Notes under the pieces: generated by a model
What the model saw: only the letters and a program-made list of their open reading frames with translations
Database searches by the model: none
What the model was told of the DNA's origin: nothing
NCBI GenBank assembly: GCA_963764695.1
Contig: CAVXTW010000015.1
Span: forward strand, 477,845 to 509,682
Direction: 5' to 3'
DNA from: an uncultured delta proteobacterium
Lineage (GTDB): Bacteria; Myxococcota_A; Polyangia; Haliangiales; Haliangiaceae
Length of the DNA: 31,838 nucleotides
Translations under genes and position numbers: made by a program
In this document: positions 14,430-24,936 of the stretch, piece after piece
Layout of the letters: each line of letters starts with the position of its first letter
How positions within the stretch are numbered: the stretch's first letter is position 1

Positions 14430-15632
14430 ATGAGGTGGTGGCCGCTCGTGGTCGCGATCGCGCTGGCCGCGCCGGCGACCGCGCGCGCCGGTGAGGAGAC
14501 CGAGCAGCCACCCGACCCGGCCGGGACCGCAGCGCCGCCCGACGGACCGCCGCCCATCATCGAGCTCTACACGATGGGCCAGGGCGAGCTCGTGTTCGAG
14601 AAGTTCGGCCACGCCGCGCTGTGCGTGACCCACACGCTCGGGCGCCGCCGGACCATCTGTTACAACTACGGCACCACGAACTTCGATGCGATCGTGCCGC
14701 TGTTCTGGGGCTTTCTGCGCGGCCGCTCGGAGTTCTGGGTGTCGACCTCGAGTCGCCGCCACATGGTCCGCGACTATCGCGAGGCCGACCGGACCCTGTG
14801 GCGCCAGGTGCTGCCGCTCGCGCCCGAGCAGGCCCACAGGCTCGACGCCCTCCTGCGCGAGAACGCGCGCGAGGAGAACCGCTACTACCGGTACCACCAC
14901 TATCACGACAACTGCTCGAGCCGCGTGCGCGACCTCATCGACCAGGTCACCGGCGGTGCGCTGTCGGCGGCGAGCGACGCCGGGCCGCTGCCCACCTACC
15001 GCGAGCTGACCCGCACCGGATACGCCGGCACGCCGGAGCTGCTGCTGCTGAGCGACCTCCTGCTCGGCCGCGAGGCCGACGAGCATCCGACCATGTGGCA
15101 GGGGATGTTCCTGCCCGACGTGCTGCGTGCCGAGGTGAAGAGGCGGCTGGGCGCGGCGCCGTCGGTGGTCTACGAGCGGCGCGGCCCGCCCTTCCCCGGC
15201 GACCCGGGCATGGGCGGCCGCTGGCTGTGGATTGCGCTCGCCCTCGCCTTCGCCGTCCCCGCCGCCCTGGCCCGCCGCGTGCGCCGCCAGCGCCTCACCC
15301 TGGCCGCGGCTTTCTTCCCGCTCGCCTTCATCGGCCTGGTGCTGTGGTTCCTGGCCGCCTCCAGCACCCTGTCGGAGCTGCGCTGGAACGAGGTGCTGCT
15401 GGTGTTCGTGCCGTTCGACGCGGTGCTGCCGTTCCTGCGACCGGCCCGGCGCGCGCGCTACGCCGCGATCCGGGCCGGCGTCCTGCTCCTTGTCGGCCTG
15501 CTGCTGGCGGTCGGCGTGCTGCACCAGCCGCTGTGGCTGCTGCTGCTCATGCCGCTGCTGCCGATGCTGCTGGTCGCCGTGCCGGGGCGCGCGCTGTCGC
15601 GCGAGGCCGCGCCCAGCGTCGCCACCAGCTGA
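14430..15632 (+). CDS. DUF4105 domain protein with C-terminal multi-TM region
   Basis: Signal peptide, ELYTMGQGELVFEKFGHAALCV, CYNYGTTNF, YYRYHHYHDNCSSR (DUF4105-like), then hydrophobic helices. Start is 3 nt after the upstream stop. Confidence 0.65.
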   Translation: MRWWPLVVAIALAAPATARAGEETEQPPDPAGTAAPPDGPPPIIELYTMGQGELVFEKFGHAALCVTHTLGRRRTICYNYGTTNFDAIVPLFWGFLRGRSEFWVSTSSRRHMVRDYREADRTLWRQVLPLAPEQAHRLDALLRENAREENRYYRYHHYHDNCSSRVRDLIDQVTGGALSAASDAGPLPTYRELTRTGYAGTPELLLLSDLLLGREADEHPTMWQGMFLPDVLRAEVKRRLGAAPSVVYERRGPPFPGDPGMGGRWLWIALALAFAVPAALARRVRRQRLTLAAAFFPLAFIGLVLWFLAASSTLSELRWNEVLLVFVPFDAVLPFLRPARRARYAAIRAGVLLLVGLLLAVGVLHQPLWLLLLMPLLPMLLVAVPGRALSREAAPSVATS

Positions 15633-15643
15633 GCGGCTTCAGG

Positions 15644-15658
15644 CCGGCGGTGCGCCGG
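15644..15658. terminator. short GC hairpin (CCGGCG-GTG-CGCCGG) between convergent genes; weak bidirectional terminator candidate
   Basis: 6-bp perfect inverted repeat read directly; no U-tract. Confidence 0.2.
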
Positions 15659-15659
15659 G

Positions 15660-16430
15660 TCAGCGCTCGTCGGCGATCTCGACGTGCACGCCCTGCTCGC
15701 GGCAGATGTCGCGCAGCCGCGGCGCCAGCGGCGAGTCGGTGACGAAGTAATCGAGCTGCGAGATGTGGCCGATGCGGACCGGCGCGGTGCGCTCGAGCTT
15801 CATGCTGTCGGCCACCAGGATCGACTTGCGCGCGCACTCCATGATCGCACGCGCCACCTTGACCTCGCGGTAGTCGAAGTCGAGCAGCGTGCCGTCCTCG
15901 TCGATCGCCGACGCGCCGATGACCGCGTAGTCGACCTTGAACTGCCGGATGAAGTTGACCGTCGCCTCACCGACGATGCCGCCGTCCGACTGCCGCACCA
16001 CGCCGCCGGCCACGATGATCTCGATCTCCTCGCAGCCCTGCAGGATGTTGACCACGTGGATGTTGTTCGTGATGGTCAGCAGGCCGCGCTTGCCGCGCAG
16101 GGCCATCGCGACCTGCTCGGTCGTGGTGCCGATGTTGATGAGCAGAGACGAGCTGTCCGGAATCAGCGACGCGGCCACCGTCCCGATGCGCCGCTTGCCG
16201 TCCGTCGCCAGCTTGCGCCGCGCCTCGTAACCGACGTTCGCGATCCCGGAGGCCAGGATCGCGCCGCCGTGAAAGCGCTGCAGGACGCCGCGCTCGCACA
16301 GGTGGTTCAGGTCGCGCCGGATGGTCTGCGGCGTGACGTGGAAGCGGCTGGTCAACGTCTCGACCTTCACCCGGCCTTCCGACCGTGCGAGCGCGACGAT
16401 GTGTGCCTGCCGCGGGTTCAGTCGCTCCAT
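15660..16430 (-). CDS. DeoR/GlpR family transcriptional repressor
   Basis: N-terminal HTH (RQAHIVALARSEGRVKVETLTSRFHVTPQTIRRDLNHL) plus DeoR C-terminal sugar-phosphate-binding fold (VVAGGVVRQ..., IGASAIDEDG). Confidence 0.85.
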   Translation of the reverse strand: MERLNPRQAHIVALARSEGRVKVETLTSRFHVTPQTIRRDLNHLCERGVLQRFHGGAILASGIANVGYEARRKLATDGKRRIGTVAASLIPDSSSLLINIGTTTEQVAMALRGKRGLLTITNNIHVVNILQGCEEIEIIVAGGVVRQSDGGIVGEATVNFIRQFKVDYAVIGASAIDEDGTLLDFDYREVKVARAIMECARKSILVADSMKLERTAPVRIGHISQLDYFVTDSPLAPRLRDICREQGVHVEIADER

Positions 16431-16471
16431 GAAAGCGCGAAAAACGCTAGCAAGGAGCGCGGTCGCGCAGC

Positions 16472-16537
16472 AAACGAAAACGAAGTTTCGTCAATCGGGC
16501 GCAAATGTTTCCGTTTGACTTTCGTTTATTTTCGAAC
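16472..16537. promoter_or_regulatory. cluster of CGAA/TTCG half-sites (AACGAAAACGAAgtTTCGT ... TTTCGTTTATTTTCGAAC): putative GlpR-type operator array
   Basis: Inverted repeat ACGAA-GT-TTCGT (16480-16491), direct AACGAA x2, TTCGT (16521-16525) and palindromic TTCGAA (16531-16536) in the AT-richer divergent intergenic region. Confidence 0.5.
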
Positions 16538-16544
16538 TTAGGCT
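16515..16544 (+). promoter_or_regulatory. candidate promoter for the ABC operon: TTGACT (16515-16520), 18-nt spacer, TAGGCT (16539-16544)
   Basis: Read directly; the spacer is occupied by the TTCG repeats, consistent with repressor occlusion. Confidence 0.35.
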
Positions 16545-16670
16545 TGGGCCGCTGTCTCGAGGAGTTGTTTGCAGTTTCCTCGCAGTGGGTTGGTAGGGAC
16601 CCGATCTGTCCTGGACCCAGCGAAAGACTGGAGCGATGTCTCGATAGCTCCGGGGGAGGATGACCATCCA

Positions 16671-18491
16671 ATGAGGATCCGACTGATGGCGGTGATTGCC
16701 GCCGCGGCGTTGGCTTCGTGCGAGAGCCCGAAATCCGAAAAAGCGGAGAAGAGCGCCGGCGGCTCGGGCGCCACCGGCGGCGGCGCGCCCGCGGCCGGCG
16801 GCAGCATGGAGGCGGCCAAGAAGTGGGTCGACAGCGAGTTCCAGCCGTCGACGCTGTCCAAGGAAGACCAGCTCAAGGAGATGGAGTGGTTCGTCAACGC
16901 CGCCGCGCCTTTCCGGGGCATGGAGGTCAACGTGCTGTCGGAGACCATCCCGACGCACGAGTACGAGTCCAAGACGCTCACCAAGGCGTTCCAGGAGATC
17001 ACCGGCATCAAGGTGAATCACCAGCTGCTTGGTGAGGGCGAGGTCGTGCAGGCGGTGCAGACGCAGATGCAGACCAACCGCAACCTGTACGACGCGTACA
17101 TCAACGACTCCGACCTGATCGGCACGCACTCGCGCCTGCAGTCGGCCGTCAACCTCACCGACTGGATGGCCGGCGAGGGCAAGGACGTCACGCTGCCGAC
17201 CCTCGACGTCGACGACTTCATCGGCAAGTCGTTCACCACCGGCCCCGACGGCAAGCTCTACCAGCTGCCCGACCAGCAGTTCGCGAACCTCTACTGGTTC
17301 CGCTACGACTGGTTCAAGAAGCCGGAGCTGCAGAAGCAGTTCAAGGACAAGTACGGCTACGACCTCGGCGTGCCGGTCAACTGGTCGGCCTACGAGGACA
17401 TCGCCGAGTTCTTCAGCGTGCACGTCAAGAACATCGACGGCGTGCGCATCTACGGCCACATGGACTACGGCAAGCGCGCCCCCGACCTGGGCTGGCGCAT
17501 GACCGACGCGTGGCTCTCCATGGCCGGCGCCGGCACCAAGGGCGTCCCCAACGGCCGTCCCATCGACGAGTGGGGCATCCGCATGGAGGAGGGCTCGTGC
17601 AACCCGGTCGGCGCGTCCGTCGCCCGCGGCGGCGAGACAAACGGCCCGGCCTCGGTCTACGCCATCCGCAAGTGGGACGAGTGGCTCCGCAAGTACGCCC
17701 CCCCGGGCGCGGCCGACTACGACTTCTATCAGTCGCTGCCGGCGCTGTCGAAGGGCAACGTGGCCCAGCAGATCTTCTGGTACACCGCCTTCACCTCGAC
17801 GATGGTCGCGCCCAAGAGCGAGGGCAACAACACGGTCGACGACGAGGGCAAGCCGCTCTGGCGCATGGCGCCGTCGCCGCACGGCCCGTACTGGATCGAG
17901 GGGATGAAGCTCGGCTATCAGGACGCCGGCTCGTGGACTCTCTTCAAGTCGACGCCGGTCGATCGCCGCAAGGCCGCCTGGCTCTACGCGCAGTTCGTGG
18001 TGTCCAAGACCACGTCGCTCAAGAAGAGCCACGTCGGCCTGACGATCATCCGCGACAGCGACATCCGCCACCAGTCGTTCACCGACCGCTCGCCGAAGCT
18101 GGGCGGCCTGGTCGAGTTCTACCGCTCGCCGGACCGCGTCAACTGGAGCCCGACCGGCGTCAACGTGCCTGACTATCCCAAGCTGGCGCAGCTCTGGTGG
18201 CAGAACATCGGCGACGTGAACTCGGGTGCGTTCACCCCGCAGCAAGCCATGGACCGTCTGGCCCAGGAGATGGACCAGGTCATGGCGCGCATGCAGGAAG
18301 CCGACGAGAAGGCCAAGGTCTACGGCGGCTGCGGCCCGCGCCTGGCGGCCCCCAAGGACCCGAAGGACTGGCTCGGCAAGCCGGACGGCCCCAAGGCCAA
18401 GCTCGCCAACGAGAAGCCGAAGGGCGAGACGGTGGACTACGACGAGCTGGTCAAGCGCTGGCAGGTTGAAGAGAAGAAGCCCCCGGGCTAG
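16671..18491 (+). CDS. ABC transporter substrate-binding lipoprotein (carbohydrate/polyol family)
   Basis: GGGGGAGGA upstream. Lipobox LASC. Long periplasmic-binding-protein-like sequence with a Lys/Pro-rich C-terminal tail. Confidence 0.8.
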   Translation: MRIRLMAVIAAAALASCESPKSEKAEKSAGGSGATGGGAPAAGGSMEAAKKWVDSEFQPSTLSKEDQLKEMEWFVNAAAPFRGMEVNVLSETIPTHEYESKTLTKAFQEITGIKVNHQLLGEGEVVQAVQTQMQTNRNLYDAYINDSDLIGTHSRLQSAVNLTDWMAGEGKDVTLPTLDVDDFIGKSFTTGPDGKLYQLPDQQFANLYWFRYDWFKKPELQKQFKDKYGYDLGVPVNWSAYEDIAEFFSVHVKNIDGVRIYGHMDYGKRAPDLGWRMTDAWLSMAGAGTKGVPNGRPIDEWGIRMEEGSCNPVGASVARGGETNGPASVYAIRKWDEWLRKYAPPGAADYDFYQSLPALSKGNVAQQIFWYTAFTSTMVAPKSEGNNTVDDEGKPLWRMAPSPHGPYWIEGMKLGYQDAGSWTLFKSTPVDRRKAAWLYAQFVVSKTTSLKKSHVGLTIIRDSDIRHQSFTDRSPKLGGLVEFYRSPDRVNWSPTGVNVPDYPKLAQLWWQNIGDVNSGAFTPQQAMDRLAQEMDQVMARMQEADEKAKVYGGCGPRLAAPKDPKDWLGKPDGPKAKLANEKPKGETVDYDELVKRWQVEEKKPPG

Positions 18492-18502
18492 ACCATCTCG
18501 CA

Positions 18503-19558
18503 GTGACGCTCGAGCTGAGAAGTGTGGTCAAGCGCGTCGGCGCCGAGACCCACATCTACGAGACCAGCGTGGTGTTCGCCGAGGAGGGTTTCAACATCCT
18601 CCTCGGCACCACGCTGTCCGGCAAGACCACGCTGATGCAGCTCATGGCCGGGCTCGAGAAGCCGAGCTCGGGTGAGGTCTGGTTCCGCGGAAAGAACGTG
18701 ACCGGCGTGGCCGTGCAGAAGCGCAACGCCGCCATGGTCTACCAGCAGTTCATCAACTACCCGAACTTCTCGGTGTTCGACAACATCGCGTCGCCGCTGC
18801 GGGTCGCGGGGCTGAAGTCGGCCGAGATCAAGACGCGGGTCCACAAGGTGGCGGAGCTCTTGCGGCTCACGCCGATGCTGAAGCGGCGGCCGGCCGAGCT
18901 GTCGGGCGGGCAGCAGCAGCGCACCGCGCTGGCCCGCGCGCTGGTCAAGGACGCCGACCTGGTCCTGCTCGACGAGCCGCTGGCCAACCTGGATTTCAAG
19001 CTGCGCGAGGAGCTGCGCGACGAGCTGCCCGCGCTGTTCACCAACCGGCGCTGCACGGTCGTGCTGGCCACGTCCGATCCGACCGAGGCGCTGCTGCTGG
19101 GCGGCCACACCGCGGCGCTGCACGAGGGCAACGTCACCCAGTTCGGGCCGACCGCCGAGATCTACCGCAAGCCGGCCAATGTCCTGACCGCGCGCGTCTT
19201 CTCCAACCCGCCCATCAACATGGCGCCGGTGGCGGTCGAGAACGGCAGCGTGGTGCTGAGCGACACCGTGAAGTGGCCGGTCCGCGGCGTCACGCTGGCC
19301 GACGGCAGCTACACCGTCGGCATCCGCCCGCACCACATCAGCCCGATCGCCAACGGCAAGGCCGCGGCGCAGATCGAGGGGCGTGTGCAGATCGCCGAGA
19401 TCAGCGGCTCCGAGAGCGTCATCCACTTCGAGCACGGCGAGCTCAGCTGGGTGTCGCAGTCGCACGGCGTGCACGCCATCGCCGTGGGCGAGACGGCCAA
19501 CTTCTTCATCGACGTCGAGCGCTGCATGTTCTTCGACGGCGACGGAAAGCTGATCTGA
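18503..19558 (+). CDS. ABC transporter ATP-binding protein (MalK/UgpC-like with C-terminal TOBE-like domain)
   Basis: Walker A GTTLSGKTT, Q-loop, signature LSGGQQQR, Walker B LVLLDEPL. Stop overlaps the next start (TGATG). Confidence 0.85.
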   Translation: MTLELRSVVKRVGAETHIYETSVVFAEEGFNILLGTTLSGKTTLMQLMAGLEKPSSGEVWFRGKNVTGVAVQKRNAAMVYQQFINYPNFSVFDNIASPLRVAGLKSAEIKTRVHKVAELLRLTPMLKRRPAELSGGQQQRTALARALVKDADLVLLDEPLANLDFKLREELRDELPALFTNRRCTVVLATSDPTEALLLGGHTAALHEGNVTQFGPTAEIYRKPANVLTARVFSNPPINMAPVAVENGSVVLSDTVKWPVRGVTLADGSYTVGIRPHHISPIANGKAAAQIEGRVQIAEISGSESVIHFEHGELSWVSQSHGVHAIAVGETANFFIDVERCMFFDGDGKLI

Positions 19559-20644
19559 TGGCCCGCATCACGCTCCAGAAGGTGCGGCACAGCTATCACG
19601 CGAAGCCGAAAGACCCGGCCGACTGGGCGCTCAAGGAGCTCGATCTCGAGTGGCGCGACGGCGGCGCGTACGCCCTGCTCGGCCCGTCCGGCTGCGGCAA
19701 GACGACGCTGCTCAACATCATCTCGGGGCTGGTGCGGCCGACCGAGGGGCGGGTGCTGTTCGACGGCGCCGACCTGACCGACGTGCCCACCGACCGGCGC
19801 CACATCGCGCAGGTGTTCCAGTTCCCGGTCGTCTACGACACGATGACCGTGCGCGACAACCTGGCCTTTCCGCTGCGCAACCGCGGCCTGCCCGAGGCGG
19901 ACATCCAGGCCAAGGTGGAGGAGATCGCGCGCATGCTCGATCTCGAGCCGCATGCTGGGCCGGCGCGCCTCGGGGCTGACGGCCGACGGCAAGCAGAAGA
20001 TCTCGCTCGGCCGCGGGCTGGTCCGCTCCGACGTCAACGTCATCATGCTCGACGAGCCGCTGACGGTCATCGACCCGCACCTCAAGTCGCAGCTGCGCTC
20101 CAAGCTGCGCGAGCTGCACCAGCGCATCACGCGCACGATGATCTTCGTGACCCACGACCAGACCGAGGCGCTGACCTTCGCCGACCAGGTGGTGGTCATG
20201 CACGACGGCACCGTGGTGCAGATCGGGTCGCCGGTCGAGCTGTTCGAGAAGCCGCAGCACACCTTCGTGGGTCACTTCATCGGCTCGCCGGGCATGAACG
20301 TGCTGCCGTGCGAGCTCAACGGTGACTCGGCGCTGCTGGCCGGGACCAAGGTCCGCGTGGACAACCCGCCGGCCGGGCCGCTCGACGGCAAGCGCCTCGA
20401 GATCGGCGTGCGCCCGGAGTTCGTGAAGCTGGCGAAGGAGGGCATCCCGGTCCGCATCGTGCGGGTGAGCGATGCCGGCCGCCACCGCATCGTCAACGCG
20501 CGCCACGGCGAGATCGGCATCAAGCTGCTCGTCGACGACGGCGTGCCGGTGCCGAGCGAGGTGGCCCACGTGCAGTTCGACCAGGCGCACACGCGCCTGT
20601 ACGCCGACGGCTGGCTGGTGGAGAAGGACGCCGACCGGGGCTGA
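19558..20644 (+). CDS. second ABC ATP-binding protein (MalK-like) with degenerate signature motif; reading frame broken near 19951-19957
   Basis: N-terminal half in frame 1 (Walker A GPSGCGKTT ... LDLEPH); C-terminal half in frame 2 (GRRASGLTADGKQKISLGRGLV, Walker B VIMLDEPL, H-loop VTHD, TOBE-like tail). Joining them needs one nucleotide removed. The signature reads LTADGKQK instead of LSGGQRQR. Confidence 0.7.
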
Positions 20645-20656
20645 CCGAGGTCAGAG

Positions 20657-22324
<1,668 letters not shown>

Positions 22325-22337
22325 GGGAGCGACGACC

Positions 22338-22625
22338 ATGTGGAGCAAGCTCTCGTGGATGGCGTGGACCTGGCAGACGGCTGTCTTCTTCCTGGCCATC
22401 GGCTTCTTGCTCCTGTGCATGGCCATCTGGGAGTGGCGCCGTCCGGGCGGCGCGCCCCGCCGCGGCATCCTGCGCATCGACACCACCCGCGGCGACCGCC
22501 TGTTCATCTCGCTGCTCGGCACGGCCTTCATCTTCCTCGGCTGGCTGGCCGCATTCGGCAGCGGCCTGTGGGGCGCGGCGGCCGTCGCCGTCGTCTACGC
22601 GCTCGCCGTCTTCCGCTGGGTGTGA
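22338..22625 (+). CDS. small 2-TM membrane protein (DUF2160-like accessory protein of glycerol-type ABC operons)
   Basis: GAGGGAG RBS 8 nt upstream; product MWSKLSWMAWTWQTAVFFLAIGFLLLCMAIW...LGWLAAFGSGLWGAAAVAVVYALAVF has two hydrophobic helices. The family assignment is from memory. Confidence 0.6.
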   Translation: MWSKLSWMAWTWQTAVFFLAIGFLLLCMAIWEWRRPGGAPRRGILRIDTTRGDRLFISLLGTAFIFLGWLAAFGSGLWGAAAVAVVYALAVFRWV

Positions 22626-22632
22626 GCGCCGC

Positions 22633-23595
22633 GTGAAGGCACTCCGCTTCTCGGACGCGCCGAGGCTCGAAGAAGTGGATGAGCCGCGGCCGGGTCCCGA
22701 CGAGGCCTTGATCCGCGTCCGCCGGGCCGGCATCTGCACGACCGACCTCGAGATCGTGCGAGGCTATCTCGGCTTCCGGGGCACCCTGGGCCACGAGCTC
22801 GTCGGCGAGGTGGTCGATGTCGGAGGGGGCGAGGGCCGCGAGTGGGTCGGCGCGCGGGTGACCGGCGAGATCAACCTCGGCTGTGCGCGGTGCGAGCGAT
22901 GCCTGTCCGGCCTGTCTCGGCACTGCGCGACCCGGACAACCCTGGGCATCGTCGGCAAGGACGGCTGCTTCGCCGAGTACGTGACCCTTCCAGTCCGCAA
23001 CCTGCACCGCGTCCCCGAGGGCCTGTCGGACGCTGTCGCCGCGTTCACCGAACCGCTCGCCGCCGCCTACGAGATCCTCGAACAGCTGCGGGTGGAGCCG
23101 GACAGCCGCGTGGCCGTCCTGGGCGACGGCAAGCTCGGCTCCCTGGTCGCACTCGTCCTGGTGCAGACCGGCGCCGACGTCACGCTGGTCGGCCGCCACC
23201 GCCACAAGCTGGAGAAGGTGGCCAGCCGCGGCGTGCGGACAGCGATGGTCGATGAGAGCATCGGTGGCAACTTCGACCTGGTCGTCGAGGCGACCGGCTC
23301 GGCCGCCGGCTTCGAGCGAGCCCGGTCCCTTCTGCGCCCACGTGGGACCATGGTCCTCAAGAGCACCTACCACGGCAAGCTCGAGCTAGACGCCGCGCCC
23401 CTTGTCATCGACGAGATCACCGTCGTCGGCTCGCGCTGCGGCCCCTTCGCCCCCGCCCTGCGCGCCCTGAAGGAGGGCCGCATCGATCCGGCGCCGTTCA
23501 TCGAGGACGCCTATCCCCTCGCCGACGGCCTGGCCGCGCTCGAGCGCGCCGCGACACCCGGCGTGGCCAAGGTCCAGCTTCTCTGCGAGGCGTGA
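22633..23595 (+). CDS. zinc-dependent alcohol/polyol dehydrogenase (MDR superfamily)
   Basis: GTG 22633, 8 nt after the upstream stop. Catalytic-zinc GHELVGEV, structural-zinc C-x2-C-x2-C-x7-C (CARCERCLSGLSRHC), Rossmann GDGKLG. Confidence 0.8.
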   Translation: MKALRFSDAPRLEEVDEPRPGPDEALIRVRRAGICTTDLEIVRGYLGFRGTLGHELVGEVVDVGGGEGREWVGARVTGEINLGCARCERCLSGLSRHCATRTTLGIVGKDGCFAEYVTLPVRNLHRVPEGLSDAVAAFTEPLAAAYEILEQLRVEPDSRVAVLGDGKLGSLVALVLVQTGADVTLVGRHRHKLEKVASRGVRTAMVDESIGGNFDLVVEATGSAAGFERARSLLRPRGTMVLKSTYHGKLELDAAPLVIDEITVVGSRCGPFAPALRALKEGRIDPAPFIEDAYPLADGLAALERAATPGVAKVQLLCEA

Positions 23596-23597
23596 TT

Positions 23598-23621
23598 GGC
23601 CGGGCAGCATCGGGCTGCCGG
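23598..23621. terminator. imperfect GC hairpin (CCGGGCAGC-atcgg-GCTGCCGG) between convergent genes
   Basis: Read directly; 8-bp stem with one bulge, no clear U-tract. Confidence 0.25.
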
Positions 23622-23641
23622 AGTCATCTCGGCCCGCTCGC

Positions 23642-24249
23642 TCAGCGGCCGGCGATCGGCTCGGCGCCGAGCTCGCGCATGACCTGGCGGAAGACCGGGA
23701 GCTCCTGCGCGCCCTGCACGGCGAGGCGGCCGTCGAAGATGAAGGTCGGCACGGCGTGGATGCCGAGCTCGTTCGCCTCGCGGACGCTCTCCTCGACGGT
23801 AGCGCGGTAGGTGCCGGCCTCGATCGCGGCCTGCAGCTCGTCCGGGTCGATGCCGACCTCGGCTGCCGCGCCGCGCAGGGTCTCGAGCGCGTACAGGTCC
23901 TGGCCCTCGGTCCAGTAGCGCCGCAGCAGCGACGCGTGCATCGGGTTCAGCTGGCCGTGCACGCGCGCGAGCTCGGCCGCCTCGTGGGCGCGCCGCGTGG
24001 AGGGCACGATCTCGCGGCGCACCATGACCAGGCCCTCGCGCTCGGCCCGCTTCTTCAGCGGATCGTTCGGGTCACTGGCCCGCGCACGCACGTACGCCGG
24101 CAGCGGTCGCCCCTCCGGCGGCGTGTCCGGTCGGAGGAAGAACGGCCGCCAGTCGACGGTGAGGTCATATTCCCGGCCCAGCTTGGCGATCTCGACGAGA
24201 CCGACGTAGCACCAGGGTCAGACGAAGTCGGACCAGATCGCGACGTCCA
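23642..24249 (-). CDS. DsbA/FrnE-like thiol:disulfide oxidoreductase with in-frame TGA (24217-24219) at first Cys of CPWC (candidate selenocysteine) and a 1-nt frame break near 24181-24183
   Basis: Minus-strand ATG at 24249 gives MDVAIWSDFV-TGA-PWCYVGLVEIAK; continuing with one inserted nt gives LGREYDLTVDWRPFFLRPD...IHAVPTFIFDGR, the FrnE/DsbA thioredoxin fold. The ORF track shows only the C-terminal 149 aa (23642-24091). Confidence 0.6.
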
Positions 24250-24324
24250 TGTATGGGGAATATAGAGCTGTGGCCGGGTGCGTCAAGCGAGTGTCCCGGG
24301 TCGCCTGCCCGGTATACTCATCCC

Positions 24325-24936
24325 ATGGCCAGTCTGGCGGAGCTGCGCGAGCGCGACGACGCCCCGACGGGAGATCAGTTCGTTCATCTTCGCGGCGTGT
24401 CGTGGGAGGACTACGAGCGGCTGCTGGAGATGCGTGGCGATCATTCGGCCCCGCGCATCTCGTTTCTGGAGGGAACCGTCGAGATCATGACCCCATCGCG
24501 GGACCATGAAGGCGTCAAGTCCTGGATCGGATGTCTGGTCGAGGTGTACTGCCTCGAGATCGGGGTCGAGTTCAGGACCTACGGATCCTGGACGATCAAG
24601 GAGCGACGCGAGGAGCGCGGCGTGGAGCCGGACGAGTGCTACGTGTTCGGAACCGATCCGGCCGATCGGCCCCACCTGGCCATCGAGGTCATCTGGACCT
24701 CCGGAGGCATGAACAAACTGGAGATCTATCGCCGCCTCGGCGTGCGCGAGGTATGGATCTGGCGTCGCGGCCACATCCAGGTCCACGCGCTACGCAGCGA
24801 CCAGTACGAGGCTCTACCCGCAAGCGAGGTCCTGCCCGGGATCGACCTCGACGAGCTGGCCAGCTATCTGGACCGGCCGACCACCAGCCAGGCCATGCGC
24901 GACTACCGCGCCGCCATCGTGGCCCGGCGCGGCTGA
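24325..24936 (+). CDS. Uma2-family (DUF820) PD-(D/E)XK putative endonuclease
   Basis: Start taken at MASLAELRERDD (ATG 24325). Conserved PHLAIEVIWTSGGMNKLEIYRRLGVREVWIWRRG block typical of Uma2 proteins. Confidence 0.7.
   Translation: MASLAELRERDDAPTGDQFVHLRGVSWEDYERLLEMRGDHSAPRISFLEGTVEIMTPSRDHEGVKSWIGCLVEVYCLEIGVEFRTYGSWTIKERREERGVEPDECYVFGTDPADRPHLAIEVIWTSGGMNKLEIYRRLGVREVWIWRRGHIQVHALRSDQYEALPASEVLPGIDLDELASYLDRPTTSQAMRDYRAAIVARRG

Follow-up and report, generated by a model that had tools for sequence, protein, structure and literature searches.

A candidate bacterial SECIS hairpin behind an in-frame UGA codon in a FrnE/DsbA-like gene of soil Myxococcota

The window analyzed here, i.e. 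the whole stretch of 31,838 nucleotides from contig CAVXTW010000015.1 of an uncultured delta proteobacterium, carries on its minus strand a gene for a FrnE/DsbA-like protein with an in-frame UGA and, behind this codon, a short hairpin resembling the apical part of a bacterial selenocysteine insertion sequence (bSECIS). The coordinates are collected in Table 1. Translation gave the N-terminus M-D-V-A-I-W-S-D-F-V-UGA-P-W-C-Y-V-G-L-V-E-I-A-K-L, in which the active site would be U-P-W-C (U standing for selenocysteine, Sec). With Cys put for the UGA, the product matched Pfam family PF01323 (DSBA) over residues 3-190 (E 5.8e-33, 114.7 bits against a cut-off of 25.6), and the best solved homologue was FrnE of Deinococcus radiodurans, a cytoplasmic disulfide isomerase of DsbA-like type (PDB 5CNW, E 6.7e-27, residues 3-193). 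The GC content at third codon positions (GC3) of the open reading frame (ORF) was 0.95, and in an alignment with 30 full-length Cys-containing homologues the UGA fell on the first Cys of their CPWC. None of the NCBIfam selenoprotein models covers the protein, the sole match being NF041057 with 37 bits against a cut-off of 190. Judged from these comparisons, the gene very probably encodes a cytoplasmic thiol-disulfide oxidoreductase of the FrnE/DsbA-like type, in which the nucleophilic Cys of CPWC would be replaced by Sec.

Table 1. Features of the candidate selenoprotein gene and its surroundings (positions in the window; RNA positions are counted with the U of the UGA as nt 1)
Feature	Position	Strand	Basis or remark
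FrnE/DsbA-like gene, predicted selenoprotein, complete	23642..24250	minus	translation, start ATG 24250, stop 23642; 202 codons, codon 11 being the in-frame UGA
UGA, putatively read as selenocysteine	24218..24220	minus	stands in place of the first Cys of the redox motif CPWC
bSECIS-type apical hairpin (candidate)	24187..24203	minus	RNAfold; 7 bp and GUC triloop
Hairpin 5' arm, CGGUCUC	24203-24197	minus	
Apical loop, G25-U26-C27	24194..24196	minus	closed by C24-G28; fits N1-G-[G|U]-N-N2
Hairpin 3' arm, GAGAUCG	24193-24187	minus	
Possible short lower helix, G11-C12-U13 (24210-24208) with A38-G39-C40 (24183-24181)	24181..24210	minus	weakly supported
Sigma-70-like promoter, TTGACG-16-TATATT	24259..24286	minus	promoter scan, 1 site against 0.0 expected

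In the numbering of Table 1 the hairpin occupies nt 18-34. From the outermost C24203-G24187 inwards, the pairs given by RNAfold were C-G, G-C, G-U, U-A, C-G, U-A and C-G. The first-pass annotation had placed here, at 24187-24201, a 7-bp inverted repeat with one G-U pair, lying 16-30 nt past the UGA with its apex about 23 nt past it. Both distances were right, and the coordinates were one base off, the repeat (GGUCUCGUCGAGAUC) being in fact minus strand 24202-24188. Its arms are complementary as had been described, but they are separated by 1 nt, so that the innermost G-C cannot form, and the RNAfold stem takes the flanking C-G instead. The GU that had been expected in the apical loop of a minimal bSECIS-type stem-loop was recovered by the folding, which left G and U unpaired, with 21 nt (nt 4-24) between the UGA and the loop.

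According to the bSECIS consensus (bSECISearch model of Zhang and Gladyshev; PMC13188914, legend to Fig 2), the apical loop has 3-9 nt and the upper stem 4-16 bp, a G lies within the first two loop positions, usually as N1-G-[G|U]-N-N2 in which N1 pairs with N2, the distance from the UGA to the loop is 16-37 nt, and the minimum free energy is <= -7.5 kcal/mol. The window hairpin agrees with this consensus in its position within the ORF, its 3-nt loop, its 7-bp stem, the C-GUC-G apex and the 21-nt spacing. It lies at the minimal end of the model, with -7.3 versus -7.5 kcal/mol, and has no well-conserved lower helix. Four of the five structural rules hold for the element, and the free-energy rule is borderline.

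Folding of the window sequence by itself was a poor guide. The 19-nt hairpin reached -7.3 kcal/mol with z = -2.2, and 9 of 200 shuffled sequences folded equally well; a 30-nt stretch that included the lower helix gave -9.7 kcal/mol (z = -1.6), a 51-nt stretch -20.1 kcal/mol, and a 66-nt stretch z = -0.65. The window has a GC content of 70%, and 75 of the 618 TGA trinucleotides on its two strands (12%) have behind them a contiguous hairpin with 7 or more bp that obeys the same loop and spacing rules; for 8.6% of the TGA trinucleotides such a hairpin also reaches -7.3 kcal/mol. Owing to this background of 12% and to the non-significant z, the fold of the single sequence was rejected as a basis for calling a SECIS. 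Simple SECIS prediction from one sequence has poor specificity in genomes of such GC content, and it is only through comparison with relatives that the hairpin stands out from chance.

A protein search returned 568 homologues. The DNA of relatives came from one genome (locus L001, a Myxococcaceae metagenome-assembled genome, MAG), from 62 metagenome contigs and from exact-protein look-ups; scanning a genome collection with a single protein query gave one locus only, and no relatives were found in the viral contigs searched. Of the 48 bacterial loci with a readable codon, 43 had TGA at the active-site codon and 5 had TGT or TGC, while TGA was likewise present there in two further relatives (L070 and L071). 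These TGA loci span 47-95% protein identity and stem from metagenomes and genomes that are independent of each other. In the Sec-form loci the codons at -6 to -1 before the TGA specify [IV]-W-S-D-[FY]-[VI] with synonymous changes (TCC/TCG/TCT, GAC/GAT and GTC/GTT), and an in-frame ATG or GTG precedes the TGA in every one of them, mostly by 10-14 codons and by 16 in L001. Conservation of the upstream codons with synonymous variation, together with the in-frame starts, indicates that the region before the UGA is translated. Coding conservation is found on both sides of the codon, and by these sequence comparisons a pseudogene, a sequencing error and a downstream start are in practice excluded.

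Gene calls in the databases mostly do not reach across the TGA. Most of the closest protein matches are 180-187 residues long, with the V or M of 'VEIEKL' right after the TGA as first residue; the remaining short homologue calls begin further downstream, and the full-length matches carry CPWC. It was also noticed that about two-thirds of the 120 best database homologues (P0001-P0120; e.g. P0025, P0032 and P0042) are gene calls shortened past the TGA. The shortened entries include NCBI MAG proteins named 'DsbA family oxidoreductase', which amounts to a systematic mis-annotation of the clade. In addition, marine metatranscriptome contigs (L050-L063) contained distant homologues (27-32% identity) with TGA at the same codon (U-P-W-C-[YWF]), no hairpin after the TGA and a different codon style; they probably represent DsbA-like selenoproteins of eukaryotes (algae or protists), with the SECIS in the 3' untranslated region. 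Rfam detected no SECIS at gathering score on these short contigs.

To assess the hairpin among relatives, 36 distinct Sec-form sequences of 63 nt, from the TGA onward, were aligned without gaps, and a helix of 8 pairs (nt 17-24 with nt 28-35) was scored. Standard pairs were present in 97.9% of the pair cells, versus 29-58% when the 3' partners were slid by 1-3 columns, and the observed covariation score was reached by none of 500 shuffles. Pair 21-31 is intact throughout, as U-A in 21 sequences and as C-G in the other 15. At pair 23-29 a single sequence (L046) has A-U where the 35 others have U-A, a switch that alters two amino acids, and at pair 20-32 there is a single G-C besides 35 G-U. RNAalifold independently recovered pairs 18-34 to 23-29 and showed no other conserved structure in its prediction. 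The loop codon (nt 25-27) is GUC, GUG, GGU or GGC in all 36, and the spacing from the UGA to the loop is identical across the relatives, the alignment being free of gaps. The hairpins of the relatives have 7-8 bp and loops of 3 or 5 nt, with 19-nt energies from -7.3 to -12.2 kcal/mol. Thus the structure that the first-pass annotation had expected in homologues is present in them: the TGA-bearing genes keep the stem, with compensatory changes at two pairs and a loop of the form G[U/G]N. For the lower helix (11-13/38-40), 90.7% of the cells were paired with one compensatory change, and for an outer helix (5-10/44-49) 76%; with covariation unconvincing at 91% and 76% pairing, neither was claimed as part of the element.

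The stem codes for V-G-L / E-[IV]-E, and the usual codons for these residues (GGC CUC / GAG GUC) are self-complementary; a control with Cys forms was therefore needed. In the Cys forms (n = 11 loci) a mean of 6.9 of the 8 pairs was kept, with at least one mismatch in 8 of the 11, and the loop codon was G[UG]N in 4 of 11 versus 36 of 36 Sec forms. The loop residue showed the same tendency at the protein level, being V or G in all Sec forms and V in 9 of 30 Cys forms, the others having A, Q, S, T, N or K. Codon choice within the stem was also biased. Twenty-one genes have GGU at the hairpin Gly, yet among their 233 other Gly codons GGU occurs 10 times (4%). Wherever the hairpin Gly faces the A of AUC it is GGU (21 of 21), and in the 15 genes that use GGC it faces a G (GUC or GCC). 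Of the 35 hairpin Leu codons 33 are CUC, versus 38-49% elsewhere. As judged from these sequences, codon usage points to selection on the RNA itself, beyond that on the protein.

In a neighbor-joining protein tree the Sec and Cys forms were interleaved, with at least 5 switches between them. Since L004 (C-G) nests within the U-A (GGU) clade, the U-A/C-G switch at pair 21-31 occurred at least 2 times. Among Cys sisters of Sec forms, two have a hairpin identical to that of the Sec sister, including the GUG loop (L064 with L024, and L066 with L026), and others have a degraded one (6 of 8 pairs in L065 versus 8 of 8 in L001; loop ACC in L039 versus L042-44). L064 is Archangium violaceum CP137851.1. 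This mixture of identical and degraded hairpins in Cys sisters matches the remnant SECIS elements described previously (PMC1794560). The hairpins of the Cys forms L064, L066 and L068 could be either fossil SECIS elements or latent ones encoded by the G-L-V-E-V-E peptide. As for the latter, we tentatively consider that the FrnE-like peptide G-L-x-E-[VI]-E may be pre-adapted, so that Cys forms already possess nearly all of a hairpin, suitably spaced from the active-site codon, an idea that we regard as possible rather than probable. If true, it would explain the interleaved Sec and Cys forms and the Cys genes that carry the hairpin of their Sec sisters (L064 and L066), and a TGC/TGA point mutation together with V or G fixed in the loop would suffice to switch the state.

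The SECIS of Escherichia coli fdhF is an element of about 40 nt, with a SelB-binding upper stem-loop, a G23/U24 in the loop and a bulged U17. The window hairpin is like it in having an unpaired G-U (G25/U26) in an apical loop that lies slightly more than 20 nt past the UGA. It differs in that the stem is without a bulged U, the loop is a triloop in place of the GGUC tetraloop and is displaced by 2 nt away from the UGA, and the element is much shorter. As a putative SECIS, it is one that works like the E. coli type and is not of the fdhF subtype.

DsbA-like selenoproteins have been known for some time. Members of COG2761 with a UxxC motif and a predicted SECIS were reported from the Sargasso Sea in 2005 (PMC1088965), one was listed in 2006 for the myxobacterium Anaeromyxobacter dehalogenans and others (PMC1794560), 41 organisms were counted with them in 2016 (PMC5029168), and a 2026 review names a 'DsbA-like protein form 1, PF01323, UxxC' (PMC13188914). 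With this form 1 the window protein shares PF01323, the UxxC at the position of CxxC in Cys homologues and a bSECIS-like hairpin downstream; it differs in belonging to a soil clade nearest to Kofleriaceae and Myxococcaceae MAGs, for which public annotations are mostly shortened. D. radiodurans FrnE and the window protein have in common an N-terminal CPWC-type active site and the lack of a signal peptide, whereas FrnE has Cys and a longer C-terminal tail (260 aa versus 202 in the window protein). Our literature search on selenoproteins and SelB in Myxococcota found no papers. Neither the family nor the mechanism is new, and the window gene is a further predicted DsbA-like (UxxC) selenoprotein gene, here from soil Myxococcota.

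A promoter scan located the sigma-70-like sequence listed in Table 1, which is close to the consensus. Only 8 nt lie between its end and the ATG, and a Shine-Dalgarno sequence is lacking; therefore, the mRNA probably has no leader or almost none. The same layout (cTTGACG...TAnnnn...ATG/GTG) was found in the closest relatives (L002-L005, L009 and L071), while loci of other clades have an AGGAG ribosome-binding site (L014, L015, L017-19, L028, L040 and L049). In the clade of the window, Sec would be inserted at codon 11 of a probably leaderless mRNA, which would be an unusual trait. By analogy with what is established for the E. coli and Moorella systems, transcription from this promoter would yield the leaderless mRNA, of which ten codons would be translated before the UGA. 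With the UGA in the A site, the hairpin, which starts 14 nt downstream, would sit at the mRNA entrance of the ribosome; the C-terminal winged-helix domains of SelB, in a complex with GTP and Sec-tRNA(Sec), may then bind the exposed G/U of the loop, and Sec-tRNA(Sec) would be delivered in competition with release factor 2 (RF2). The ribosome would subsequently unwind the hairpin and read it as G-L-V-E-I.

Within the 31.8-kb window ARAGORN identified no tRNA, hence no tRNA-Sec, and Pfam annotation of 20 window ORFs revealed no selA, selB or selD. Neighbourhoods of 20 kb around L070 and L071 were likewise devoid of selA, selB, selD and tRNA-Sec. A scan of the window for other selenoprotein genes, i.e. 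in-frame TGA codons flanked by high-GC3 coding sequence, gave a single case, at 20642, where a normal stop codon precedes the next gene. As for the relationship of the organism, the PrmA encoded in the window shares 76% identity with proteins from Kofleriaceae MAGs, and the sole genome match for the DsbA-like protein is the Myxococcaceae MAG; the source is therefore placed among the uncultured Myxococcota of soil. The gene order of L071 (GCA_973417575.1, contig CCXGZQ010000876.1), a close relative genome, is that of window positions 14430-24936: a divergent Uma2 endonuclease-like gene, the DsbA-like selenoprotein gene and a convergent zinc alcohol dehydrogenase gene, then a sugar ABC transporter with its solute-binding protein, a DeoR regulator and an Lnb_N-domain protein. 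A terminator-like stem of 7 pairs with a T-rich tail was also noticed on the minus strand at 23746-23766, inside the DsbA-like coding region and about 100 nt before its stop; with 1 found against 0.2 expected, it is probably a chance match.

Taking the folding and the relatives together, we consider that the hairpin closed by C24203-G24187 is the functional core of a bacterial SECIS, to which SelB would bind for Sec insertion, and we put the probability of this at roughly 80%. The minimal bacterial SECIS after a Sec-UGA in a DsbA-like gene that the first-pass annotation had suggested would thus appear to be borne out. Several observations weigh against this assignment. The fold lacks significance in the single sequence, and a comparable hairpin follows about 9-12% of the TGA trinucleotides in the window. 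The energy of the isolated hairpin falls just above the consensus limit, and pair 17-35, U-A in the relatives, is a U.C mismatch in the window, leaving 7 bp. Rfam gave no match at gathering score over the whole window, and for 24120-24260 at E up to 10 only a chance snoRNA match (E 6.7). A perfect 8-pair stem is kept in the three Cys forms named above, and since Cys forms still pair, part of the stem complementarity is driven by the protein (peptide G-L-x-E-V-E). Moreover, no Sec machinery was seen in the window or beside the L070 and L071 genes, and the use of Sec by the organism is therefore a prediction.

Some of these points would suit an explanation in which the UGA does encode Sec and the hairpin is mainly a by-product of the peptide G-L-V-E-[IV]-E, the SelB determinant being a different or larger structure, or a relaxed one. 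The average of 6.9 pairs in Cys forms, with all 8 in L064, L066 and L068, is what such a by-product would give; the lower helices are merely 76-91% paired, the window hairpin is short and of marginal energy, and some bacterial selenoprotein genes are known to depart from the consensus SECIS model (PMC13188914). However, the rare GGU stands exactly opposite A in 21 of 21 genes, pair 21-31 covaries perfectly, and the U-A to A-U switch in L046 goes along with a change of two amino acids. The loop is G[U/G]N in every Sec form, in contrast to the A, Q, S, T, N or K residue of most Cys forms, the nearest Cys sisters decay (L065 versus L001, L039 versus L042-44), and RNAalifold offers no alternative conserved structure in which the determinant could lie. 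We therefore regard a mere by-product as improbable. A true stop, by which the gene would be a pseudogene or start downstream (at GTG 24091 or the Val codon of 'VEI') to make a protein without CxxC and leave the hairpin irrelevant, is considerably less probable still. It would accord with the automatic annotations of relatives, which begin downstream, and with the lack of visible Sec machinery in the window, but not with the recurrence of TGA at one and the same codon in over 40 independent loci of 47-95% protein identity, in all of which the TGA is preceded by conserved protein sequence and by a start codon in frame. The Pfam match begins at residue 3, before the TGA, which itself occupies the position of the catalytic Cys, and a product started downstream would lose the first beta-strand and the active site. 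The least credible explanation, for which there is no specific support, is that the UGA is decoded otherwise, by a reassigned code (Trp or Gly) or by non-specific near-cognate read-through: TGA terminates most high-GC3 ORFs in the window, and its being the usual stop of neighbouring genes argues against a reassigned code. Furthermore, the UGA aligns only with Cys in homologues and is followed by a structured element with SECIS features. Pseudogene, true stop and reassigned code were accordingly rejected on the conservation evidence.

With the hairpin read as a SECIS core, the gene would encode a full-length selenoprotein, not the 149-187-residue 'DsbA family oxidoreductase' delivered by automatic pipelines, an annotation error shared by about two-thirds of its closest database relatives. 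What is known of Sec decoding is left unchanged by this finding. That constraints on the RNA and on the protein fall together on one set of 19 nucleotides makes it an instructive case, and a compact SECIS validated by comparison (8 bp with a G[U/G]N triloop at a spacing of 21 nt from the UGA) could possibly serve as the seed for a covariance model or an NCBIfam rule. For the DsbA-like (UxxC) selenoprotein family, the locus and its relatives would add a well-sampled clade of soil Myxococcota.

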